DNA of 64,000 nt from Pseudomonadota bacterium (GCA_027620075.1 JAQCEY010000002.1:104358-168357), one strand, 5' to 3'; shown: positions 2,851 to 30,856, numbered from the stretch's first letter. Numbers and translations: made by a program. Notes: generated from the sequence alone by a model not told the origin.

Positions 2851-3627
2851 TTATAGATTAAATCTTAGTCTTAGGGTGCATACAACAAGATCGTTCTGAG
2901 TGTTATACGTTACGGCGTTGTTATTTGCGGCTCCTGTTACACATGCGGTAGCGTTGCCGGCAGTAGCGTTATAAACAGCTGCTGTTTCTGCGTTTGTAGC
3001 GTTACCTGCCCTTGCATGAACAACACCTCTTCTTGGCTGACCGTCATCAATTTTGTCGTCAATGTTCTGAGCGTCAAGCGGGTTTAGAACGTCAGTTGTA
3101 AGATAAACTCCGGAAGCACCGCCTGTAACTCCTAACATAAAATAGTTTGATGAACCGTCACTGAAAACACCCCAGAACTGACCTACTTTTGTGCTTGGCA
3201 ATGTAGCTGAGGCGGTAGCGGCAGTCACTGCTGCACCGTCATATGACCCCGGTATCAAGGCCGCTCCCGTAGAGCCGAGATGATTCCAAAACTGAACGTT
3301 CTCCCCCAAGTCGGATGCAGGAGTTGCTGTTGTAGCTATTGTAAGGTCGGTAGATGCCCCTAATAATGTGTCCCCGTCGCCGTTACCGACGAAACCGAAA
3401 TCAGTCTCCGCCCTTACATCGCCCGGAAGACCGTTATATTTACCGCGGAATGTACCGACTGCGGCGTTAAAAGATTCATATTGCGTCACAACCGCCCGAA
3501 GTTCTGCACCTCTGACCAGATCCTGACCGACTAATACACTTGAAATTATCAATCCTATTATCACCAGTACTATTGAAAGTTCCACAAGAGTAAAACCGTT
3601 TTGTTTTTTTTGTAATTTCTTACTCAT
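2851..3627 (-). CDS. Prepilin-type N-terminal cleavage/methylation domain protein (pilin-like paralog 2)
   Basis: MSKKLQKKQNG|FTLVELSIVLVIIGLII leader and hydrophobic helix. It has the same downstream motifs (FRGKYNGLPGD, QFWNHL, NYF, IDDKIDDGQPRRG, C-x22-C near the C-terminus). Confidence 0.82.
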   Translation of the reverse strand: MSKKLQKKQNGFTLVELSIVLVIIGLIISSVLVGQDLVRGAELRAVVTQYESFNAAVGTFRGKYNGLPGDVRAETDFGFVGNGDGDTLLGASTDLTIATTATPASDLGENVQFWNHLGSTGAALIPGSYDGAAVTAATASATLPSTKVGQFWGVFSDGSSNYFMLGVTGGASGVYLTTDVLNPLDAQNIDDKIDDGQPRRGVVHARAGNATNAETAAVYNATAGNATACVTGAANNNAVTYNTQNDLVVCTLRLRFNL

Positions 3628-3887
3628 ATTTTATCTCCGTAATTTTTATGCCAAAAAGCACTTAAAGTAAAATTCACGTAATAATAAATGTAATTATGCA
3701 ATTTATACCAATACAACTTTAATATATAATATAGTACAACCATACGCTTACCATTTTGGGAAAAAATTACAAAATAAGCAGGTGATTTTGTAAGAAACTA
3801 CAAAATGAGTAATGAATATCTGACTCTTGAGAACGTGTATTTTAGCGGTAATCCTGTACAAAAAGCGTTACCGCTGTCGTTAAAACG

Positions 3888-5096
<1,209 letters not shown>

Positions 5097-5234
5097 TCAC
5101 CGTTCATATAAAATTAATTAATTTCGATTGTTTTCATATACAGAAAGATTTAACGTAATACAATAACAAATATTTGAAAAAAAGTGCTAATTAAAGTAAT
5201 ATAGATATAGTTAATACAAATCAAAAATTTTATT

Positions 5235-6308
5235 ATGGTATTATTCAGAAAAAAAAAGAAGCAAAAAACAAAAGCTTCTGTCGGCGGTTTCTTCAAGGAC
5301 AAGTTTATCGGTGATTTTGATCTTTCAGATGCGGGTGTTAGAACTGTTTCATTTATAAAAAAGAAGGTTTCGGACGGAATTCAGGGAATTTATGATTCAA
5401 GGGACAAGTTAAAGGATATTCCGGGGACGAATTACAAACTCGGTCTGTACCACATGCAGCAGGGCAATTTTTATGATGCCATATTCCGTTTCGGCATAGT
5501 CTGCCGTTTTGCACCCGATAATATCGATGCTCATTATAATCTTGCACGTTGCTACATGTTCAGAGGAGCAAACAAGGAGGCTAAAAAGAAGCTTGAGCAT
5601 GTATTGAAAAAAATACCCGACCATGTTGAGGCTAAATATCTTTTGAAAAAGATAGATTCACCGAAAACCGTAGAGTTTATTCCCGAAAGTCTTATAAAAG
5701 AAACTATTGATATAAGAGCTGATTTTTACCGTCAGGATTATATTGATAACGGCTATTCGGGGTCTAAGGCTCTAGTTAATGAGGTTTTCAGGAACGTTAA
5801 TGACAAGAACCCTAATTATGATGTGCTTGACCTTGGTTGCGGCACGGGCGTTTGCGGTTTTATATTGAAAAAAAGGTCTTTGGCGAGGCGTATTGTAGGT
5901 GTTGATTTGTCAAAGATAATGATAGAGACATGCAGGGGAAAAAGGGTTGAAAGCGAGCCTGTATATGATGAGTTGCATGAGGCCGAGATATCAAAATATC
6001 TGCAATCGGAGCAATCAAAATATAATCTTGTGCTGTCTGATCTGGCAACGGACTTTATAGGCAAACTTGACGGTTATGCGGTTTCTATAAAGCGTGTTTT
6101 GGTAGATGGCGGTTGTTATGCCGCCGTAGTCAGATGGGAAGATGAGTTGAAGGAAGGATATAAGCTTAACTCTGATTATGAGGATTTTAGCTATTCAAAA
6201 AAATACTTTGTAGATAACTTCGCAAAAGCCGGGCTAAAACTTACAGGTTCCAAGGAAATTGATATGGTGGGTGACGAGAAGGCCGAAATATTAATATTTA
6301 AGTCTTAA
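5235..6308 (+). CDS. TPR-repeat plus class I SAM-dependent methyltransferase domain protein
   Basis: 357 aa with TPR-like helices (YKLGLYHMQQGNFYDAIFRF..., AHYNLARCYM) followed by the SAM-binding motif VLDLGCGTGVCG. Confidence 0.7.
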   Translation: MVLFRKKKKQKTKASVGGFFKDKFIGDFDLSDAGVRTVSFIKKKVSDGIQGIYDSRDKLKDIPGTNYKLGLYHMQQGNFYDAIFRFGIVCRFAPDNIDAHYNLARCYMFRGANKEAKKKLEHVLKKIPDHVEAKYLLKKIDSPKTVEFIPESLIKETIDIRADFYRQDYIDNGYSGSKALVNEVFRNVNDKNPNYDVLDLGCGTGVCGFILKKRSLARRIVGVDLSKIMIETCRGKRVESEPVYDELHEAEISKYLQSEQSKYNLVLSDLATDFIGKLDGYAVSIKRVLVDGGCYAAVVRWEDELKEGYKLNSDYEDFSYSKKYFVDNFAKAGLKLTGSKEIDMVGDEKAEILIFKS

Positions 6309-8913: not shown

Positions 8914-8982
8914 GTCATGCCGAACTTGTTTCGGCATCTAAAGTGCGGCAAAAGTAGAACCTGAAATAAATGCTTCGATGAC
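8914..8982. repeat. Type A GTCAT...ATGAC double-hairpin repeat, copy A1
   Basis: GTCATGCCGAACTTGTTTCGGCATCT...CTGAAATAAATGCTTCGATGAC. It has the same architecture as 25516..25583, 47869..47932 and 55993..56059. Confidence 0.75.
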
Positions 8983-16498: not shown

Positions 16499-18358
16499 AT
16501 GAATAATTTTGATGTAATTGTTATAGGTGCGGGACATGCGGGCATTGAAGCGGCTACCGCATCAGCTAGGGTAGGGGCAGAAACCCTTTTAATAACACTT
16601 AAAGAAGATAATTTGGGCGAAATGTCATGTAATCCGGCAATCGGCGGTGTGGCAAAGGGAACAATAGTACGTGAAATAGATGCACTTGACGGAATAATGG
16701 GACGTGCTATAGACAAAGCAGGTATTCATTACAGAATGCTAAATGCCAGTAAGGGGCCGGCAGTTTGGGGACCTAGAGCTCAGGCTGATAGAAAGTTATA
16801 TAAAAAAGCCGTTAGCGAAATATTAAAGGACTATGAAAATCTAACTATAAAATATTCATCTGTAGAAGATATCATAGTCGAAGATAATGTTGTAAAGGGT
16901 ATAATTACAGAAGATAGTCAAATCATAAAATGTTCTAAAGTTATTCTAACAACAGGAACATTCTTACGTGGCCTTATTCATATCGGGGAAAAAACTATTG
17001 AAGCGGGCAGGGTAGATGAAAAGCCGTCGATAGGTTTATCGGATACTTTATGCAGATTGAATTTTAATATGGGACGTTTAAAGACGGGAACGCCACCACG
17101 TCTTGACGGCAAAACCATAAAATGGGATTTAGCGGAAAAACAATCCGGCGATGAAGTGCCGACCCCGTTTTCATATATGAATGACAAGGTGGAAGTTCCA
17201 CAAATAAGTTGTTATATAACCAAAACCACTCCAGAAACTAAAAAAATCATTGAGGCAAATGTTCACCGTTCGCCGATGTATTCAGGAAAAATTGAAAGTA
17301 CAGGTCCTAGATATTGTCCTTCTATAGAAGATAAAATAGTTCGCTTTTCCCATAAAGAAACTCACCAAATTTTTCTTGAGCCTGAGGGGCTTGATGATGA
17401 TACCGTTTATCCGAACGGCATATCAACTTCATTACCGGAAGATGTACAGCTTGCTATATTAAAATCAATGCCGGCATTAGAAGATGCCGTCATGCTCCGT
17501 CCGGGATATGCGATTGAATATGATTATGTTGATCCACGTGAATTATATCCGACATTAGAGACAAAAAAAGTAAGCGGATTATATCTGGCAGGGCAGATAA
17601 ACGGAACAACAGGATATGAAGAAGCCGGAGGGCAGGGGATAGTATCGGGTATAAACGCCGCTTTGCAAGCACTCGGTAATAATGAAAATTTCATATTAGA
17701 CAGAGCGGATGCTTACATAGGCGTAATGATAGATGACCTGATTAACCTCGGAACTTCAGAGCCTTACAGAATGTTTACGTCAAGAGCGGAGTATCGATTA
17801 TCAATTAGGGCGGATAATGCCGACCAGCGTTTAACCCCGATAGGAATAAAATTCGGAGCAGTTAAAGCTTGCCGACAAGAAGCATTTGAAAATAAAATAA
17901 ATGAAATTAATACACAGCGTGAAAAATTGAATTCGCATAAGGTTAGCCCCACAAAGGCTAAACAATTCGGAATTAGCATTAATCAAGACGGTGTAAAACG
18001 TTCTGCCTTTGAACTTTTGCGTTATCCTGATATCAAATTTGAAGACGTAGCAAAAATCTGGCCCGACCTTAACGAAATGAACAAAGGTGTTCTACAGCAG
18101 CTTGAGATTGAAGCTTTATATTCATCATATCTTGCTAAACAGCAAGCGGATATTTTAGATTTCAAAAGGAACGAAAATATTAAAATACCTTCTGGCTTTA
18201 ATTATGATTCGGAGATGATTAGCCTTCCTAACGAAGCCAGAATAAAATTCAAGCAAAACAAGCCCTTAACCATTGGCGCGGCAGGCAGAATACCCGGCAT
18301 AACACCGGCTGCCGTAACGGCATTAATGGTTGCTATACGGCAAAATAAGGTTGCTTAA
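16499..18358 (+). CDS. mnmG: tRNA uridine 5-carboxymethylaminomethyl modification enzyme MnmG (GidA)
   Basis: 619 aa with FAD-binding [26 protein letters not shown] and [12 protein letters not shown]. Confidence 0.95.
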
Positions 18359-18389
18359 TGTAAAAATAAGGGTTTATAATTTTGAAAGC

Positions 18390-18405
18390 CTTTTCACGTG
18401 AAACA
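18390..18405. promoter_or_regulatory. parS: parS-like site 2
   Basis: CTTTTCACGTGAAACA, with 2 mismatches at the outer positions, in the mnmG-rsmG spacer. Confidence 0.6.
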
Positions 18406-18468
18406 CTTTGACAAAGTGTTATTCTGCATTTAAGAAAAACAATCTGCAACCAATAAATTTTAGAAAAT

Positions 18469-19098
18469 ATGGAAGATAAAAACTATCTTGAACGGTGTTA
18501 TAAGGAACTGCTTGAAATTACAGAAGTTTCACGTGAAACGTTCGAAAAATGTGTTGATTACATAAATTTGCTTCTAAAGTGGAACAAAAAGATAAATCTT
18601 GTCAGCAAAAAACATGAAAATTTTGAAGATATCTGGGAAAGGCATTTTATTGACTCGGCTCAGTTGTTAAAATACATTCCACGTGAAACAAAAATAATAA
18701 CCGATTTTGGAAGCGGGGGAGGATTTCCCGGAATTGTAATCGCTATATTAGGAAATTACCAATTACATCTAATAGAAAGCGATATAAGAAAATGTGCTTT
18801 TTTAAATGAAGCCGCACGGCTTGTCAAAAAAGATATACAAGTCCACAACAAACGCATTGAAAATATTAATAGCTGGCAAAGCGACGTTTTGACAGCCAGA
18901 GCCTTGGCATCCGTCGATAAATTGTTAAATCTGACAAAAGATTTCCACGGGAAAAGTAAAATATGTCTTTTCTTAAAGGGGCAAAATGTAGTAGAAGAAC
19001 TTAAAGAGGCACAGGCTAATTGGAGCTTTGATTATAATATGCACCATAGTCACTCAAGTTCCGACGGTCGTATTCTTGAAATAACGAACCTTAAGTAA
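18469..19098 (+). CDS. rsmG: 16S rRNA (guanine527-N7)-methyltransferase RsmG (GidB)
   Basis: 209 aa with [23 protein letters not shown] and TARA motifs. Confidence 0.9.
18525..18540. promoter_or_regulatory. parS: parS-like site 3 (inside rsmG)
   Basis: AGTTTCACGTGAAACG. The 14-nt core GTTTCACGTGAAAC is perfect. Confidence 0.65.
18675..18690. promoter_or_regulatory. parS: parS-like site 4 (inside rsmG, degenerate)
   Basis: CATTCCACGTGAAACA. The right half-site is perfect and the left half has 3 mismatches. Confidence 0.4.
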
Positions 19099-19109
19099 TA
19101 GGATATGTT

Positions 19110-19913
19110 ATGCAAACCACTGAAAATACTACAAAAGTTATTGCTATTGCAAACCAGAAGGGTGGCGTAGGAAAGACTACAACTACGGTTAATCTGGCAA
19201 CCGCTTTGGCAGCATCGGGAAAGAAAGTCTTATTGATAGACCTAGACCCTCAAGGAAATGCCAGCACCGGTTTCGGTGTCAAGAGGGGGGAGCGTAAGGG
19301 CGATATATACGATGTAATCTGTGACAAAATCGACATTAAAGATGCTATTGCTAAAACTGAAATTCCCGACTTAAGTTTATTATATTCGACCGTTAACCTA
19401 TCGGCTGCCGAAATAGAACTGGTAAGCGTCGTAGGCAGGGAGTTTGTTTTAAAAGACAAGCTGGCTGAAATTAACGGAATGTTTGACTATGTTTTGATAG
19501 ATTGTCCGCCGTCACTAGGTCTGCTGACCATAAATGCACTGGTTTCCTCCGGCTCTGTTTTGATACCTTTGCAATGTGAGTTCTATGCTTTGGAGGGGTT
19601 AAGCCACTTATTAAAAACTATCGACAAAGTAAAAAAACACCTGAACAAAGAACTAAAAATACACGGGATATTATTAACTATGCAGGATAAGCGTAACAAC
19701 CTTTCTCAGCAGGTTGAAACCGATGTAAGGGGCTATTTGGGCGACAGTGTTTTTAAAACGGTCATACCTAGAAATATTAGGGTATCTGAGGCTCCGTCAC
19801 ATGGAAAGCCGGCAATTTTATATGATTATAAATGCTCAGGCTCTATGGCATATATACATTTGGCAAAAGAAATGCTCCAACGAGAAAAGTTAGCAAAAGC
19901 AGTTCCGGCATAA
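19110..19913 (+). CDS. parA: Chromosome partitioning ATPase ParA (Soj)
   Basis: 267 aa with Walker [14 protein letters not shown] and DCPPSLG. Confidence 0.94.
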
Positions 19914-19916
19914 TTT

Positions 19917-19932
19917 AGTTTCACGTGAAACT
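19917..19932. promoter_or_regulatory. parS: parS-like site 5 (parA-parB spacer)
   Basis: AGTTTCACGTGAAACT, a perfect 16-nt palindrome with the consensus 14-nt core. Confidence 0.75.
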
Positions 19933-19970
19933 TGGTGTAGGTGATATTAAAAAAATAGGATAAAAAAAAG

Positions 19971-20948
19971 ATGAAAAAATCTAAAAGTGCATTAGGAATG
20001 GGACTATCGGCATTATTTTCTGAGGAAGATACTGCCGTTATAGACAGCGAATCAACAGGTCAAAGGGCGGTAGTGCAAACATCTGAAGACCTGTCGGAGG
20101 AGGATAATCCTAATGACAGAATGAGAGCCAGACTGCTTGACGTTAATATGCTGGTTCCGGGAAAGTTCCAGCCACGCGGATATTTCGATGAAGAAAAGCT
20201 AAACGAGTTAGTAAGATCGATAAAAGAAAACGGTGTTATACAGCCGATTTTAGTTCGTACAGAGGATACCGAAGGGCGTTACCAGATTATAGCAGGTGAG
20301 CGTAGATGGAGGGCTTGTAAGCAGGCGGGCTTGGAAAGAATACCGGCGGTTATCAAGGAGTTATCGGACAGAGAAGCTCTGGAGGTGGCATTAGTAGAAA
20401 ACATTCAAAGACAAAGTCTAACGGCTATTGAAGAAGCGGAAGGTTATAAAAAGCTACTGGAAGAATTCGGATATACTCAGGAAAAACTAGCTTCAAATTT
20501 AGGCAAAAGCCGTAGCCACATATCTAACATGCTGCGACTATTAAATCTTCCCGATGAAATAAAAGATTTCATAAATACAGGTGCTTTGTCTATGGGGCAT
20601 GCAAGGGCTTTAGTAAACGCACAGAACCCTATAGAGTTGGCGTACAAGATTATAGAAGAGGGTTTGAGCGTTAGGGAAACCGAAAAATATGCCGCCGGAA
20701 GTGGAAAAAGGGGAGGCAGAGCAAATGCTGCTCCCGTTAAACCGAAATTAGAGCCTTCCGTACAAAATACCCCTTCTTCTAACGCTCCTGTCGGAGAAAA
20801 AGACCCCGATCTGATAATTATTGAAAACTCCCTTTCCAATAGTATGGGTATGAAAGTTACCATTGACGATACGGAGGAGGGTGGAAAAGTAACATTGTAT
20901 TTCAATAATCTATCCGAATTGGACAAAATCTTACAAAAGTTAGGGTAA
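19971..20948 (+). CDS. parB: Chromosome partitioning protein ParB (Spo0J)
   Basis: 325 aa with the ParB box and arginine patch IIAGERRWRA, plus the HTH region QEKLASNLGKSRSHISNMLRLL. Confidence 0.94.
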   Translation: MKKSKSALGMGLSALFSEEDTAVIDSESTGQRAVVQTSEDLSEEDNPNDRMRARLLDVNMLVPGKFQPRGYFDEEKLNELVRSIKENGVIQPILVRTEDTEGRYQIIAGERRWRACKQAGLERIPAVIKELSDREALEVALVENIQRQSLTAIEEAEGYKKLLEEFGYTQEKLASNLGKSRSHISNMLRLLNLPDEIKDFINTGALSMGHARALVNAQNPIELAYKIIEEGLSVRETEKYAAGSGKRGGRANAAPVKPKLEPSVQNTPSSNAPVGEKDPDLIIIENSLSNSMGMKVTIDDTEEGGKVTLYFNNLSELDKILQKLG

Positions 20949-25401: not shown

Positions 25402-25496
25402 GGAACCTCTGCAAAAGGAGTAAGGAGTTATAAAATTTAGTCCCTTCTCCCCAAGGGAGAGGGAGTAGTTTGTACACTTTTGCAGAGGCTGCTATA
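25396..25496. repeat. Type C palindromic repeat, short form, copy C1
   Basis: ACTATAGGAACCTCTGCAAAAGG...CCCTTCTCCCCAAGGGAGAGGGAG...CTTTTGCAGAGGCTGCTATA. It shares the ACTATA junction with B1. Confidence 0.8.
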
Positions 25497-25515
25497 ATTG
25501 TTTTTTGAATTTTTT

Positions 25516-26274: not shown

Positions 26275-27068
26275 TATCGGTTTTTAAAAAGAATATATCT
26301 CGTGACTTTGATAAAGCCGCCGGAAATTATGACGAGCATGCAACGGTTCAGCGAAAGGCTGCCGATAATTTATTCTCAATGATAAAGGACGATATAACAA
26401 ACAATAAGTTTGTGTTAGACGCGGGTTGCGGTACGGGTTATCTGCATGAATTATTGAGAAAGAATAAGATACATTGTCCTTTATTCCAGACAGATATTTC
26501 ATATAATATGTGTAAGGTTGCCGACGGTTATGCATCACCGCCTGAATATGGAGGAACATATACCTGCCGCTCCGACGTTGAAAATCTGCCTTTTGCCTCC
26601 TCCTCGATTGATTTGGTTTTTTCATCGCTTACATTGCAATGGACGGATGCGGAAAAAGTTTTGCAGCAAATATATAATGTGCTGAAGCCGAAGGGAAAAA
26701 TAGCAATTGCCACAATAGGTTGCGGTACACTTTCAGAGCTGCATGAATCATCATTATCTTTGGGCAAAGAATTATATATCAATGATAATTTTGTGAACGA
26801 GGAATATTTGAACGGCTTGTGCGTAAACACCGGTTTCAGGAATATAGAGGTTCAAAGCGGTACTATAAGGATAGAGCATGATAATTTAAAGAAGCTGCTT
26901 ATTTCTATAAAAGGCGTGGGTGCAAGCTATAAGGCAAAGCGTGAGGCGAGATATTTAGGTAAGGATTACTTTGTGCGGTTGGAAGAAAAATATAAGGAAA
27001 ACTTTTGCAGTAACAATAAACTTATAGCCGGTTGGAATATTATTTATGTTACGGCGGAAAAAAGTTAG
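26271..27068 (+). CDS. bioC: Malonyl-ACP O-methyltransferase BioC
   Basis: 265 aa with FDKAAGNYDEHATVQRKAA, VLDAGCGTG and LQW motifs typical of BioC. Confidence 0.8.
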   Translation: MISVFKKNISRDFDKAAGNYDEHATVQRKAADNLFSMIKDDITNNKFVLDAGCGTGYLHELLRKNKIHCPLFQTDISYNMCKVADGYASPPEYGGTYTCRSDVENLPFASSSIDLVFSSLTLQWTDAEKVLQQIYNVLKPKGKIAIATIGCGTLSELHESSLSLGKELYINDNFVNEEYLNGLCVNTGFRNIEVQSGTIRIEHDNLKKLLISIKGVGASYKAKREARYLGKDYFVRLEEKYKENFCSNNKLIAGWNIIYVTAEKS

Positions 27069-27114
27069 GAAGCTTTTTGTAGTCATTCCAAATTACGTTT
27101 TTATTCGTTCTTTT

Positions 27115-27158
27115 TGTCCCCCGTCGAAGGGAGAGGGTGTTTTGCAGAGATTACTATA
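27115..27158. repeat. Type C repeat fragment (right half), C4
   Basis: CCCCCGTCGAAGGGAGAGGGTGTTTTGCAGAGATTACTATA. Confidence 0.6.
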
Positions 27159-27197
27159 AATATTTACTTCCGTTGCTATTTATATTATAATAACAAT

Positions 27198-27536
27198 ATG
27201 GGTATAATACGTAAAATTTTGTTTTTAATTGTTTTTGTAAGCCTGTCCTTTTCGGGTGCGGCTAATGCTGCCGTTGATTGCTGTGTTAAAGATGGCAACC
27301 CGGAACATGTGCCTATGATGATGGAAGAGCCGTGTCATGATATGGAAGAAGATGTTAAAAATAACGATAATAGCTGTGAAAATTGCGGTTGTCAGCATTG
27401 TATAGGCAGTCTTTTCACGTTAGTGCAGCTAAAAAATGCAATACAAAAAATCTCAATATCAAATTCGTATTTTGATGATAATTTTATATCAATATCAATA
27501 AACAAAATACTCCAACCGCCCAAACATATCTCCTAA
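27198..27536 (+). CDS. Small exported Cys/His/Met-rich protein (putative metal-binding)
   Basis: Signal peptide MGIIRKILFLIVFVSLSFSGAANA, then AVDCCVKDGNPEHVPMMMEEPCHDMEE...CENCGCQHC. The track start at 27114 lies in a repeat fragment. Confidence 0.5.
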   Translation: MGIIRKILFLIVFVSLSFSGAANAAVDCCVKDGNPEHVPMMMEEPCHDMEEDVKNNDNSCENCGCQHCIGSLFTLVQLKNAIQKISISNSYFDDNFISISINKILQPPKHIS

Positions 27537-27592
27537 CGTTTTTTACAAGGCATTATTGTGCCTTATGCTAATCTATAACAGGAGATATTTGA

Positions 27593-28276
27593 ATGAAAGT
27601 TTCTATTTCATTTATGCGGAATTTATTTCAGCATCTATTATATATCGCAATAATGTTTGTTGCCTCTATTGCGATATCGGCGAGTTCGTTTGCACGCCCC
27701 GTTTCATATCCTGAGGGGTGGACTATTATGCAAATGAATAACACGAACAGTAACAATCTGCATGTCCATTATTCACCGACAGCTAAGTATTCCATCGGCT
27801 ATAAAGGAGAGTATCACAGAGCGGAAGAATGGCAGTTTCACGGTATGCAGCTAAATTATCTGGCAAAGAGAGTAAATAAAAAAAGCTCTCAAGCCAATAT
27901 TTATCTGAAATCGGCAATAGGTGCTGCCTATAGTGATTTTGGGGCTTTTGACAATAAGACCGAAGCTGCCGCATCAATAGGCATCGCCACAGATTGGGAA
28001 ACAAGGAGGTATTTCACTTCATATGAAAACCGCCTTACCTATGCCGGTGATATCGAGAAATCCTTTGAACAAAAGGCGAGGGTGGGGATAGCCCCGTATC
28101 TTGGTAGTTATGGCGACCTGCATACATGGCTGATGCTGGAAGTAGATCACAGTCCCAAACGTGCCGATGAGGTTATTTATACACCGATGGTGCGGCTGTT
28201 TAAGGACGTGTATTTGTTTGAATTCGGTGTCAGCAGTAACAAAGATTTTTTAATTAATACGGTAATAAGATTTTAA
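27593..28276 (+). CDS. Putative outer-membrane beta-barrel protein
   Basis: 227 aa with an N-terminal signal-like hydrophobic segment ending SSFA, alternating-residue beta-strand patterns, and a C-terminal aromatic end ...NTVIRF. Confidence 0.5.
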   Translation: MKVSISFMRNLFQHLLYIAIMFVASIAISASSFARPVSYPEGWTIMQMNNTNSNNLHVHYSPTAKYSIGYKGEYHRAEEWQFHGMQLNYLAKRVNKKSSQANIYLKSAIGAAYSDFGAFDNKTEAAASIGIATDWETRRYFTSYENRLTYAGDIEKSFEQKARVGIAPYLGSYGDLHTWLMLEVDHSPKRADEVIYTPMVRLFKDVYLFEFGVSSNKDFLINTVIRF

Positions 28277-28287
28277 GGAGAAATAAC

Positions 28288-28659
28288 ATGAAGAAAATAT
28301 TTTTATCAATTTCAATTGCAGTTTTGTTTTTAACAACTAACGCTTTTGCCAACCACCCCGGACATACGCATGATAATGAGCCGGAGGAAGCCACAGAGTC
28401 GAAAACGGGTAGCATTGAGGGTGCAGCATGTGAAGATATAGTAACCGTGTCTGTAAACGGTCTTGTATGCGATTTTTGTGCAAGGGCTTTAGAAAAGACC
28501 TTCGGTAAACAAGATGAGGTTTCCCGAATCAATGTAGACCTTGAAAAAGGGAAGGTGGCTATAGCCATGAAAGAAGGTATGACCATTTCTGACGAGATGC
28601 TTACCAAGCTTATTACGGATTCGGGATATAACGTAACCGCAATTGATAAGGGTTGCTAA
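28288..28659 (+). CDS. Periplasmic heavy-metal-associated (HMA) domain protein, MerP/CopZ-like
   Basis: Signal peptide MKKIFLSISIAVLFLTTNAFA, a His-rich NHPGHTHD segment, and an HMA fold with the metal motif GLVCDFC. Confidence 0.75.
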   Translation: MKKIFLSISIAVLFLTTNAFANHPGHTHDNEPEEATESKTGSIEGAACEDIVTVSVNGLVCDFCARALEKTFGKQDEVSRINVDLEKGKVAIAMKEGMTISDEMLTKLITDSGYNVTAIDKGC

Positions 28660-28660
28660 C

Positions 28661-29056
28661 ATGGATAATGAAGCTGAAAATTACGGCAAGAAACAGACTC
28701 TCTTGCCGTTTATTAGCCTTTTTACGTCATTAGGTACGCTTGTTTGCTGTGCGTTGCCTGCCTTGCTGGTGACGATAGGGGCGGGGGCGGCTCTTGCTGG
28801 ACTGGTAAGTTCCGCTCCTTGGCTTGTTGCCTTGTCTAAATATAAAATATGGACATTTAGCATTGCGGGGGGGCTTATTATCGTATCGGGGATAGTACGC
28901 TATAAAAACCGCAATGCACCTTGCCCCATAGACCCCAAACAGGCAAAAGCATGTATGAAGCTGCGTAGGATAAGCTCGGTTATGTACCGGCTTTCGGTAG
29001 CCGTTTATATGATAGGGTTCTTTTTTGCGTTTGTGGCAAGTAAGGTTTTTTATTAG
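28661..29056 (+). CDS. MerT-like small membrane protein with a vicinal Cys pair in TM1
   Basis: TM1 LGTLVCCALPALLV, two further TM segments and a loop Cys pair (APCPIDPKQAKAC) mirror MerT topology. The start at 28661 (MDNEAE) comes directly after the upstream stop. Confidence 0.5.
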   Translation: MDNEAENYGKKQTLLPFISLFTSLGTLVCCALPALLVTIGAGAALAGLVSSAPWLVALSKYKIWTFSIAGGLIIVSGIVRYKNRNAPCPIDPKQAKACMKLRRISSVMYRLSVAVYMIGFFFAFVASKVFY

Positions 29057-29065
29057 GATTAAAAG

Positions 29066-29086
29066 CCCTCTCCCACAGGGAGAGGG
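29066..29086. repeat. Type C core hairpin fragment (C5), a possible shared terminator
   Basis: CCCTCTCCC-ACA-GGGAGAGGG, lying between convergent genes. Confidence 0.5.
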
Positions 29087-29122
29087 AGTCTAACAAAATG
29101 AAAATCGATGTTTTTTTTCGAT

Positions 29123-30856
29123 TTAGTTCATCAGGACTTCCGGACGTTCCTGTAACTTTTTCGTTTCGGCTATGACATCGGGGCGTATTCTGGAACTTGG
29201 CAGTATTACATTTGCCGTTGTACCCACTCCTACCTTGCTATCAAGCCTGAAAGTACCGCCATGCATCTGGGTAAGCATCTGACACAGAGGAAGCCCGAGA
29301 CCGGTTCCCTGATCCACGTCATCACCGTGAACCTGCTCAAATACTGCCATTGCTTTGGGTATGTCCTTAGAGTCAATACCGCGTCCGGTATCGCTTACCG
29401 ATATAACAATGTTATTTTCATTATCATAATGGCTGGAAACTACTATGTTTCCGCCTTCAGGTGTGAATTTAACGGCATTTGATAAAAGATTTAAAATTAT
29501 CTGTTTTATCTTTCTTCTGTCAGCGTAGATATAACTCTCGTTTTGCCCTACTTCGTTTATGACGTTAACGCCGTTAGTGCGTGCCTTTTGTTCAATTATA
29601 CGTATTGATGAGTTAATGGTTTTACCTATATCTACTATCTCTTCACGTAAGGTTAGTTTGCCCGCATCGCCTTTTGAAAAATCCAGAACATCGTTAATAA
29701 GCTCAAGAAGGTGGTTGCCGCATGAATTAATATCGCTTATACGTTCGGTTTGCGGAGGTGTAAGCTTCCCGAAATAATCCTTTGCAAGCATTTCGGAAAA
29801 GCCGATAATGGCATTTAGCGGAGTGCGAAGCTCATGGCTCATTTTAGCAAGAAAGTCGGATTTTGCCTGACTGGCAAGCAATGCTTTATTTTCAGCATTG
29901 CGAGATTTTTTGACCTGTTTATCAAAGAAATATGAAAAGGTAATTATAAGACCTATAAATAATACGAAAATAGTTCCGAACAGAGAATATTCGTTCCTGA
30001 CCCTATTTAAATGTTCGAAAATTCCCGTCTCGTCAATACTCAAAAACACGGAGACCGGCATATCTTTTAAGCTCTGTGCAGAATAAAGCTTGAATTTATT
30101 ACCGGCATTTTTTTCAAATATACGGGCAGATATTGACGGCTCTTTTGTAACCTCGTTGATAACGGGTGTAAAAAAAACGTTTTGTTTATCACTTGCCAAC
30201 AATACGTTTTCCGCATTGCTGTTGTGGGTAACGGCAAGCTGTACCTGCTTTTCGTTTAATGCCGATCTTAGTATGTTTATAAGAAGGTTGCCGTCTATTA
30301 CCGCAAGCACCATGCCGTCATACTGACCTTTTAGATTCTCCAGACGGCGGCTGGCGATTATCCGGTTGTCTTTTTCACTGGAAAGGGGGGTGATATACAG
30401 GCTGTTATCGGTAATTTCTCTATGATGTACGGCATGCTTCTTGATGGTTTCCTGAACGTTCATGTAGAGTGTTTCGACATCGCTGTCTTTTCTTACCACT
30501 ATATCGATAAATCCGTTCTCGTCACTAATCATCATAGCACTGATATGAGGGACTTCATTAACCCATAAGCCCATATTATGCTCCATATCGGATTTTAACG
30601 ATTTGCCGAACAGCATATTGAAATACTGGCGTTCAACCGCCCTGCGTAAAGTCTGGTCAACCGATATAAAACCTATCTCGACATTTGACGACAATATCTC
30701 GGTAAGCCTCGAAAGATCGAGTTTTGCTTGTGCTATAGTCTCATTATGCTCACGTTTATTTTGAAATATAGCAAAAGAAAAAAATAGTAACAACGCTATA
30801 GCACTGATTATTACTATTGTTCTTAGGTTAGATATTTTTAAAAGCTGCTGTTTCAT
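29123..30856 (-). CDS. Sensor histidine kinase with a periplasmic sensing domain (no cognate response regulator adjacent)
   Basis: 577 aa with an N-terminal TM, an extracytoplasmic region, a second TM, the H-box SHELRTPLNAI, the N-box LLSNAVKFT and G-boxes DTGRGI and GTGLGL. Confidence 0.86.
   Translation of the reverse strand: MKQQLLKISNLRTIVIISAIALLLFFSFAIFQNKREHNETIAQAKLDLSRLTEILSSNVEIGFISVDQTLRRAVERQYFNMLFGKSLKSDMEHNMGLWVNEVPHISAMMISDENGFIDIVVRKDSDVETLYMNVQETIKKHAVHHREITDNSLYITPLSSEKDNRIIASRRLENLKGQYDGMVLAVIDGNLLINILRSALNEKQVQLAVTHNSNAENVLLASDKQNVFFTPVINEVTKEPSISARIFEKNAGNKFKLYSAQSLKDMPVSVFLSIDETGIFEHLNRVRNEYSLFGTIFVLFIGLIITFSYFFDKQVKKSRNAENKALLASQAKSDFLAKMSHELRTPLNAIIGFSEMLAKDYFGKLTPPQTERISDINSCGNHLLELINDVLDFSKGDAGKLTLREEIVDIGKTINSSIRIIEQKARTNGVNVINEVGQNESYIYADRRKIKQIILNLLSNAVKFTPEGGNIVVSSHYDNENNIVISVSDTGRGIDSKDIPKAMAVFEQVHGDDVDQGTGLGLPLCQMLTQMHGGTFRLDSKVGVGTTANVILPSSRIRPDVIAETKKLQERPEVLMN

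Follow-up and report, generated by a model that had tools for sequence, protein, structure and literature searches.

What could four consecutive genes for envelope proteins do with a metal in a region that offers no reductase, no merR, and no P-type ATPase? The question is raised by positions 27198 to 29056 of a 64,000-nucleotide stretch of DNA from a Pseudomonadota bacterium (GCA_027620075.1, JAQCEY010000002.1:104358-168357), here called the window. A preliminary description, made from the sequence alone, had read these genes as an exported MerP/MerT-like metal-handling module. Open reading frame (ORF) calling confirmed the genes themselves: P1 to P4, as we name them, are real, consecutive, and all on the plus strand, and they carry the motifs that had been ascribed to them. 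We propose, with a probability of about one in two, that P1-P4 form a self-contained operon for a thiophilic metal, most likely Cu(I), in which P1 is a regulatory leader and the metal would be relayed from an outer membrane pore (P2) to an HMA-domain chaperone (P3), to a MerT-like inner membrane carrier (P4), and into the cytoplasm.

The four genes and their conservation

P1 opens with a signal peptide ending in GAANA and holds seven Cys plus His and Met ligands, with the motifs DCC, EHVPMMMEEPCHDMEE, and CENCGCQHC. P3 likewise has a signal peptide, followed by a His-rich N-terminal stretch (NHPGHTHD) and the motif GLVCDFC. Because AGGAG lies seven bases ahead of the P2 ATG, the AAGGAG of P3 overlaps the P2 stop codon, and P4 starts two bases past the P3 stop, we read P1-P4 as one operon (Table 1), which supports the earlier proposal of a single envelope-spanning metal-handling unit. 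A P4 start at TTG 28643 was set aside in favor of the ATG at 28661. Ahead of P1, positions 27163 to 27197 hold no Shine-Dalgarno (SD) sequence and the best -10 box ends 6 nt from the P1 ATG; the mRNA from which P1 is translated may thus have a very short leader or none.

Table 1. Features of the P1-P4 locus, in positions of the window
Feature	Position	Strand	Description	Basis
Promoter-like site TTTACT-17-TATAAT	27163..27191	+	Weak consensus match ahead of P1 (10 of 12 positions)	Consensus scan
P1	27198..27536	+	112-aa exported Cys/His/Met-rich leader protein, proposed CopL/CutF/CruR-like cis-acting metal sensor	ORF, conservation
C28/C29 of P1	27279-27284	+	Further candidate metal ligands	Sequence, conservation
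C46-H47 of P1	27333-27338	+	Further candidate metal ligands, invariant	Sequence, conservation
Cys cluster C60-x2-C63-x-C65-x2-C68 of P1	27375..27401	+	Putative metal-sensing site	Sequence, conservation
Pro107-Pro108 codons of P1	27516..27521	+	Putative ribosome-stalling site, four codons ahead of the stop	Invariant Pro-Pro
Anti-SD strand AUAUCUCCU	27526..27534	+	Final three codons of P1 and the first stop-codon base; pairs with 27580-27588	Complementarity
Inner hairpin, P1-P2 intergenic region	27543..27571	+	Enclosed by the anti-SD:SD helix	Folding
P2 SD region AGGAGAUAU	27580..27588	+	Predicted to be sequestered by the P1 3' end; P2 start codon at 27593	Complementarity
P2	27593..28276	+	227-aa predicted outer membrane 12-stranded β-barrel with C-terminal Phe (...VIRF), without curated family	AlphaFold2 model
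P3	28288..28659	+	123-aa predicted periplasmic HMA-domain metallochaperone	Pfam HMA, family alignment
P4	28661..29056	+	131-aa predicted three-helix inner membrane protein, MerT-like	Invariant residues, weak MerT links, AlphaFold2 helices
Palindromic hairpin CCCTCTCCC-aca-GGGAGAGGG	29066..29086		Terminator-like, between the convergent P4 and histidine kinase genes; copy of a dispersed repeat	

Homologs of P4 fall into at least 3776 clusters (90% identity, E ≤ 1e-3), are 60 to 75% identical to the query, and carry no Pfam domain; those of P2 fall into at least 1043 clusters, again without a Pfam domain. A pattern scan that took one genome per species found the cassette in at least 570 species-level genomes of several phyla, and the best 80 of these carriers are all metagenome-assembled genomes (MAGs). 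Carriers include Rickettsiales and other Alphaproteobacteria, Micavibrio, Dadabacteria/'Thermodesulfobacteriota', Cellvibrionaceae, Thiotrichales, Oleiphilaceae, Spirochaetia, and Bdellovibrionales. The preliminary description had staked its reading on the genes keeping together in other genomes, and they do: P2, P3, and P4 are adjacent and in the same order in 84 of 85 fetched loci, well beyond what chance would give, the lone exception being a truncated contig. P1 could be detected by BLAST in 43 of the loci, and most others keep a small exported Cys-rich ORF directly upstream of P2. A word-indexed homology search with P1 returned only the identical protein and one 85% relative, and the P1 family was therefore gathered by position.

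Some of the small exported Cys-rich ORFs differ in their ends, which read ...QRLRI, ...QRIRC, or ...LRILV (L071, 2793-3197; L054, 6408-6806; L062, 6505-6879). The one in L054 has an internal RAPP 22 residues from its end. An ORF of this kind precedes copA in the Micavibrio locus L071 and takes the place of P1 upstream of the cassette in L054 and L062. These ORFs may represent a second type of leader peptide.

Clustering of all flanking ORFs from the 85 loci revealed no further conserved partner beyond lineage-specific synteny. Similarly, when 150 flanking proteins taken from 45 diverse loci were compared with Pfam, no family occurred in more than four loci, and P-type ATPases, MerR, and pyridine-nucleotide disulfide reductases were absent among the 25 most frequent families listed. 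Since nothing beyond the four genes recurs outside individual lineages, the cassette is autonomous. In the window itself, tblastn with Tn21 MerR, MerT, MerC, and MerA found nothing meaningful, the P-type ATPase motif DKTGT is absent, and the sole G[ML]xCxxC motif is that of P3. The reported lack of a reductase, merR, and P-type ATPase thus holds for the 64-kb window, and none of these genes is recurrent near the 45 diverse loci. A fragment of a canonical mer operon was rejected as an identity for the cassette: the window holds neither merA nor merR, neither recurs near the 45 diverse loci, and P4 is not a curated MerT.

In some 22 loci of the Dadabacteria type (L008/L009-type), the cassette lies a few kilobases from a conserved four-gene block (products of about 390, 170, 195, and 980 aa), a lineage-specific linkage. 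A Variovorax megaplasmid carries the HMA gene and P4 alone (P4 at 133.8 bits with a hidden Markov model [HMM] of the P4 family); this pair is therefore the conserved core, as are MerP and MerT. Relatives of P4 were found on 6 of 72,556 plasmids, and P4 is thus not a common mobile resistance gene.

P1 and the P1-P2 junction

The preliminary description had found no regulator in the module. This is probably wrong: P1 has the hallmarks of a leader peptide, and its 3' end appears to sequester the ribosome-binding site of P2. On these two grounds, we think it likely that P1 is the operon's own metal sensor, a cis-regulatory leader, and not mainly a protein of the relay.

According to published work (PMC9426467, PMC9973294, bioRxiv 10.1101/2025.02.05.636593), more than 95% of proteins in the DUF2946/CopL class have an export signal, and the class is marked by a CxxC or CxxxC motif and by a Pro-rich motif close to the C terminus (RAPP three residues from the end in CruR, PPP two from the end in CutF); conserved spacing between motifs and a stem-loop shielding the SD are further hallmarks. 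In the mechanism given there, copper on the nascent chain alters ribosome stalling and so controls the downstream genes in cis. P1 falls below the 150-aa size of the class, has an export signal, and is the first gene of its operon, with the next same-strand gene within 100 nt (a 56-nt gap here; 34 to 141 nt, mostly below 100, in homologs). It has a CxxCxCxxC motif and a Pro-Pro near the C terminus at a conserved distance from the Cys residues, and an RNA structure of the CutF type shields the downstream ribosome-binding site.

Conservation within P1 is concentrated in few positions. In an alignment (A2) with 24% mean column identity, the invariant residues are C46, H47, P107, and P108, and C65 comes close to invariance. 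Spacing is kept where sequence is not: the last Cys and the Pro-Pro are separated by 39.3±2.1 residues (range, 37 to 45) of unconserved linker, and in 54 of 66 homologs exactly four residues and the stop codon follow the Pro-Pro. The distance from the C-H dyad to the last Cys is more variable (22.5±3.8 residues; range, 16 to 41). Among 37 P1 relatives, 16 matched the NCBIfam model CopL_fam (NF033807; best E, 8.6e-6), two matched HYC_CC_PP, and four gave weak matches to Pfam DUF2946 (PF11162; best E, 0.093). The mature N termini of P1 relatives contain Met-rich MxM runs, typical of periplasmic Cu(I) sites.

P1 thus resembles the leaders of CutF-cutO (cutFOG, Rhodobacter capsulatus), CruR-bfrG (Bordetella pertussis), and CopL-copAB (Xanthomonas) in its size below 150 aa, export signal, Cys/His motif, Pro-rich motif near the stop, conserved motif-to-motif spacing, and place as first gene of what is, in those systems, a copper-related operon; with CutF it further shares the short intergenic region and an RNA structure hiding the next ribosome-binding site. 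It departs from these systems in other respects. Pfam DUF2946 is essentially unmatched, P1 has an additional invariant C-H dyad and a CxxCxCxxC cluster, and the anti-SD strand is made of the leader's own last codons and stop codon. A cargo of pore, HMA protein, and MerT-like protein is not among the downstream neighbor classes named in the text consulted of two of the leader-peptide papers.

The junction between P1 and P2 provides a second line of evidence. The P1 end at 27526-27534 and the P2 SD region at 27580-27588 are perfectly complementary, and the 85-nt P1-P2 region folds with a minimum free energy of -19.2 kcal/mol (z, -3.34; 0 of 200 shuffles as good). One or two GC-rich hairpins occupy the same intergenic position in most loci. 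In a set of 64 loci, pairing of the P1 3' end with the P2 SD region has a mean duplex energy of -10.0 kcal/mol, compared with -4.9 for other 18-nt windows of the same P1 genes (Wilcoxon P, 1.7e-11). To score covariation independently of the P1 sequence, the first GGA ahead of the P2 start codon served as the anchor in each locus. At the stop codon, base two and its partner formed G-C in 16 cases, A-U in 15, and G-U in 3, with 12 mismatches, a result reached in none of 2000 phylogeny-blind shuffles. Two positions 5' of the UCC codon behave in the same covarying way, and the combinations UGA/UCA and UAA/UUA each occur in several unrelated lineages. An Rfam scan of 26800-29300 found no known RNA family. 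A ribosome paused with the Pro-Pro in its P and A sites would cover the next 12 to 15 nt or so, which is the anti-SD strand; the fixed spacing of Pro-Pro and stop would then be accounted for.

A proposed metal relay of P2, P3, and P4, and competing explanations

The AlphaFold2 model of P2 (predicted local distance difference test score [pLDDT], 90.4) comprises a signal helix and 12 β-strands. Foldseek searches of PDB structures gave only generic barrels (E > 1e-3), with the best TM-scores to the 12-stranded KdgM/NanC porins (KdgM, 0.51 and 0.63 at 9% identity), and a sequence search of the PDB found nothing meaningful. CopB/PcoB (PF05275) was rejected as an identity for P2, there being no HMM match and, in hhalign against the bona fide CopB of L071, a P of 0.039 over 23 columns. 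P2 is 227 aa long here and about 214 aa in homologs. An exact copy of a dispersed repeat, GAATTTATTTCAGCATC, lies within its 5' coding region (27619-27635), in the N-region of the signal peptide (...MRNLFQHLL...). P2 may thus carry an in-frame repeat insertion like the palindromic elements of Rickettsia. The repeat occurs eight times in the window, compared with 0.39 expected; the other copies are at 8922, 8957, 25559, 40586, 47911, 56001, and 56035, and most copies are intergenic inverted pairs.

P3 matches Pfam HMA (PF00403) at 27.7 bits, above the gathering score of 24.8. Its best NCBIfam E values are 2.2e-11 for CopZ models and 1.7e-6 for MerP, all below equivalog cutoffs, and tblastn aligns it with Tn21 MerP at 2.3e-7. 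The motif GLVCDFCA is invariant in 81 sequences of the family (Cys codons at 28468-28479), and the His-rich N terminus is variable. Two more Cys residues are widely conserved in the family, in an AAC motif before the HMA fold and a C-terminal GC, and may form a stabilizing disulfide or a second metal site.

In P4, the invariant residues include C29, C30, and P33, forming CCxxP in helix 1 (CC codons at 28745-28750), and C88 and C98 in the basic loop between helices 2 and 3 (28922-28954; alignment A1). The AlphaFold2 model, with a pLDDT of only 67, places helices at residues 14-51, 63-84, and 92-130. Because the loop between helices 2 and 3 contains eight Lys/Arg, the positive-inside rule would put the C88/C98 pair in the cytoplasm. 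P4 has no ATPase or energy-coupling domain and no conserved membrane-embedded acidic residue, from which we infer that it would move metal passively, by thiol exchange.

The MerP/MerT-like pairing that had been proposed holds as architecture: the HMA domain, CCxxP, and loop Cys pair are all present. The claim of MerT homology fared less well when put to HMMs, since the window P4 does not match PF02411 (MerT) at E ≤ 1 and only 9 of 27 relatives do (best E, 2.5e-4). Aligned by hhalign, P4 and Tn21-type MerT are colinear over 89 columns (P, 0.0098). An HMM of the P4 family scores Tn21 MerT at 3.8 bits and a Salinibacter 'MerT family' protein at 10.2 bits. The best curated NCBIfam matches, though weak, are MerT_CopZ_Se (NF045683, a MerT/CopZ fusion-like heavy-metal transport selenoprotein; E, 0.02) and MerTP_fusion (NF033556; E, 0.05), with scores far below the cutoffs of 375 and 180 bits; in the cassette, unlike in these proteins, the membrane and HMA parts are separate genes and selenocysteine is absent. 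As judged by these comparisons, P4 is at best a remote relative in the MerT superfamily and not a MerT. MerC was rejected as an identity for P4 (hhalign P, 0.26 over 10 columns), and a sequence search of the PDB with P4 returned nothing meaningful.

Two known systems offer parallels. As in the MerT/MerP of Tn21/Tn501, a periplasmic HMA protein is encoded beside a three-helix membrane protein with CCxxP in helix 1 and a Cys pair in the helix 2-3 loop (its cytoplasmic location being a prediction for P4), and the likely mechanism is thiol ligand exchange. The order here is P then T, whereas Tn21/Tn501 have merT-merP; the loop pair is C-x9-C in P4 and C-x5-C in MerT; P3 differs from MerP in its His-rich N terminus and two further widely conserved Cys; and, compared with mer operons, merA and merR are lacking and an outer membrane barrel and leader peptide are added. 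The second parallel is the layout of CopB/CopC/CopD in copABCD of Pseudomonas syringae, and of PcoB/C/D: an outer membrane barrel, a periplasmic copper chaperone, and an inner membrane importer, serving copper homeostasis. The parts are nonhomologous, as P2 is not a CopB, P3 is an HMA protein and not a CopC, and P4 has three helices, compared with eight in CopD. The preliminary description could match the arrangement to no described system. In fact, its regulatory logic (cutFOG, cruR-bfrG, copLAB) and its layout (CopB/CopC/CopD; MerP/MerT) have described counterparts, but the combination and the P2 and P4 families do not, and our literature search found no description of a MerT-like copper importer or of this cassette.

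Gene associations bear on which metal is handled. In Micavibrio sp. UBA5703 (L071), a small Cys-rich ORF, the multicopper oxidase gene copA (3255-4961), copB (4951-5676; Pfam E, 5e-73), P2 (5677-6324), P3, and P4 are contiguous in that order. The canonical order in P. syringae is copABCD, and the triplet, directly after copA-copB, thus occupies the copC-copD slot; the presence of both CopB and P2 means that P2 is no simple substitute for CopB. A copper island on a Vibrio alginolyticus plasmid (L090, NZ_CP119336.1) carries a genuine member of the P4 family (120 bits) and an adjacent HMA gene with a signal peptide, together with genes for a MerR-type regulator, a P-type ATPase, a GDCCVxC protein, a cupredoxin, CopB, and a multicopper oxidase. 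We therefore consider copper the likelier metal. The Vibrio P4 relative lies beside a GDCCVxC (seleno)protein and an HMA protein, a point of resemblance to NF045683. The annotation does not recognize the P4-family ORF at about 5000-5385: its tblastn match begins ahead of a coding sequence for a 'heavy metal-associated domain-containing protein' (from 5174, in another frame) and overlaps the region beside the GDCCVxC (seleno)protein. A misannotation or a recoding site is possible there.

These findings suggest the following model. Metal would enter through P2 as a small 12-stranded outer membrane pore, be bound by the CxxC of the periplasmic chaperone P3, pass to the membrane-embedded CC (CCxxP) of P4, and be handed to the cytoplasmic Cys pair, moving downhill from periplasm to cytoplasm by thiol ligand exchange. 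Import or relay of a thiophilic metal, as first suggested for the module, remains the best reading. It is likely that P3 and P4 form a hand-off pair of the MerP/MerT kind, and inward transport is the direction that we favor with somewhat less confidence. For regulation, ribosomes would pause at the Pro-Pro of P1, four codons ahead of the stop. By then the Cys cluster, some 39 residues closer to the N terminus, would have reached the tunnel exit and translocon or lie just past them. A ribosome in this position would mask the last P1 codons, which otherwise would pair with and hide the P2 SD, so that the length of the pause would set translation of P2-P3-P4, as in the CutF model; metal on the nascent chain would alter that length. 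We lean slightly toward CutF logic, in which metal prolongs the pause and turns the operon on, and the module would then serve copper homeostasis by clearing Cu(I) from the periplasm into the cytoplasm.

Several observations weigh against this model. P1 is absent in some loci (e.g., L037, L064, L077, and L078), and the P1 of the window matches none of the curated leader-peptide models in the Pfam and NCBIfam profiles, being tied to the relatives that match CopL_fam through BLAST only. Its Pro motif (xPPK(H)xS with four trailing residues) is not RAPP plus three, as in CruR, or PPP plus two, as in CutF, and its spacing of about 39 residues compares with 45 in the CutF/CruR/CopL class. The anti-SD sequence could partly be a by-product of conserved Leu/Ile-Ser codons, and the covariation shuffles ignore the relatedness of the loci. 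On the side of the relay, the model of P4 has a low pLDDT and its link to MerT lies below every curated threshold, the Asp within the CxxC of P3 (CDFC) and its His-rich tail would also suit Zn, Cd, or Pb, and the cassette encodes no cytoplasmic metal acceptor. Finally, sequence by itself reads neither the sign of the switch nor the role of the module.

The last point opens the way to the strongest alternative, which we consider rather unlikely overall: nutritional copper acquisition under negative feedback. In copper-poor waters, the same relay would supply cytochrome oxidase and other cuproenzymes; apo-P1 would stall and keep the operon on, and metal-bound P1 would fold, free the stall, and allow the SD to be resequestered, a CruR-type logic acting at the level of translation. 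The hosts are mostly small-genome aquatic MAGs, the cassette sits amid housekeeping genes, its rarity on plasmids is unlike that of a typical mobile resistance determinant, and the Dadabacteria-type loci place it beside a conserved block whose largest product is the ~980-aa protein. When copper is present, CruR, which belongs to this class of leaders, represses a TonB-dependent transporter for copper uptake (PMC9426467). However, CruR works via Rho and a long intergenic region, whereas P1 shares its Sec signal, multiple upstream Cys, short intergenic region, and SD-sequestering helix with copper-induced CutF; the best curated match of the P1 family is CopL, leader of a copper-induced resistance operon; and the gene associations that are informative link the cassette only to copA-copB and a plasmid copper resistance island.

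Could P1 instead be a stable periplasmic metallochaperone or sponge within the relay, and could the anti-SD pairing simply couple translation in the ordinary way, with no part in sensing metal? Its signal peptide and seven Cys with His and Met ligands would suit such a protein, and operons commonly contain structures that sequester an SD and in this way simply couple translation. However, only five positions of P1 are conserved and yet the linker length and the distance from Pro-Pro to stop are tightly kept, a pattern that fits a nascent-chain ruler and not a folded binder, and P1 is dispensable in some lineages that keep P2-P4. CutF, moreover, is degraded on export and acts in cis only (PMC9973294). 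We regard this explanation as quite unlikely.

More doubtful still is a thiol-redox relay like CcdA/DsbD/ScsB, in which P4 would shuttle reducing equivalents from its cytoplasmic loop pair through the CC to the periplasm, so that the P3 CxxC or other thiols of the envelope would stay reduced during copper or oxidative stress. The four invariant Cys of P4 do form one membrane pair and one cytoplasmic pair, and a glutaredoxin-MauE fusion gene lies directly 3' of P4 in L006 (8418-9146), its cluster being found in four loci of the Rickettsiales type. Against this, P4 has no similarity to the CcdA/DsbD families, its three helices and vicinal CC fit metal carriers of the MerT type, and the outer membrane pore would be left unexplained. 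Upstream of the cassette, L006 also holds a cation-diffusion-facilitator gene and an RND pump.

Least probable of all is a mercury-specific uptake pair, a stripped-down mer system with its reductase elsewhere or lost: the match of P3 to Tn21 MerP, its weaker one to the MerP model, the MerT architecture of P4, and the weak MerT HMM matches are outweighed by the higher scores of P3 with CopZ than with MerP models, the 3.8 bits of canonical MerT, the lack of merA/merR in the window, with neither recurring near the 45 diverse loci, the Met-rich motifs and the copAB and copper-island contexts that point to copper, and the fact that MerT/MerP without MerA cause mercury hypersensitivity, which makes conservation across hundreds of genomes unlikely.

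Genomic setting and significance

The window P1 and P2 are 100% identical to PQ612_07080 and PQ612_07085 of a Rickettsiales MAG. Pfam annotation of 20 kb of the identical public contig around P1-P4 showed housekeeping genes only: gidA/gidB/parA/parB, phaC, bioF, a bioH-like gene, and bioC upstream, and a convergent histidine kinase gene and a Mg-chelatase-like gene downstream. Between 14000 and 21000, gidA, gidB, parA, and parB lie at 16499-20948 and the cumulative GC skew has its minimum near 15 to 16 kb; the region of the chromosomal replication origin may be part of the window.

Repeat fragments had been reported on both sides of the module. They exist, at 27129 and 29066-29086, but they belong to a dispersed palindrome and do not mark a module-specific boundary: GGGAGAGGG occurs at 25455, 27129, 29066 (minus strand), and 29078 (plus strand), four matches compared with 0.2 expected, and the extra copy at 25455 identifies it as a dispersed intergenic palindromic repeat. 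This copy, together with the same bioF-bioC/kinase context in a close relative (CG11 MAG), led us to reject mobile-element boundaries. Two of the copies, one (25425-25500) upstream of the bioH-like gene and the other (27095-27170) upstream of P1, also have a stretch TTTGCAGAG...CTATAA downstream of GGGAGAGGG.

To our knowledge, little is understood of how bacteria import copper through both membranes, and few inner membrane copper importers are known. We tentatively suggest, as a possibility to which we give less than even weight, that the cassette is a hitherto unrecognized trans-envelope Cu(I) import route, widespread in uncultured aquatic bacteria and built from two uncurated protein families and an HMA chaperone. 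Its leader would autoregulate it with the nascent chain as a ruler and the stop-codon region as anti-SD strand, a switch unlike those of CutF and CruR. P1 would be a natural test case of nascent-chain metal sensing, with ruler length, stall site, and RNA switch legible in sequence and with homologs across phyla supplying natural covariation data. If P2-P4 are a Cu(I) relay, thousands of "hypothetical" proteins (the P4 and P2 clusters counted above) would gain a function, in hosts that include abundant uncultured Dadabacteria, Rickettsiales-like Alphaproteobacteria, and marine Gammaproteobacteria, and the MerP/MerT hand-off principle would operate outside mercury resistance.

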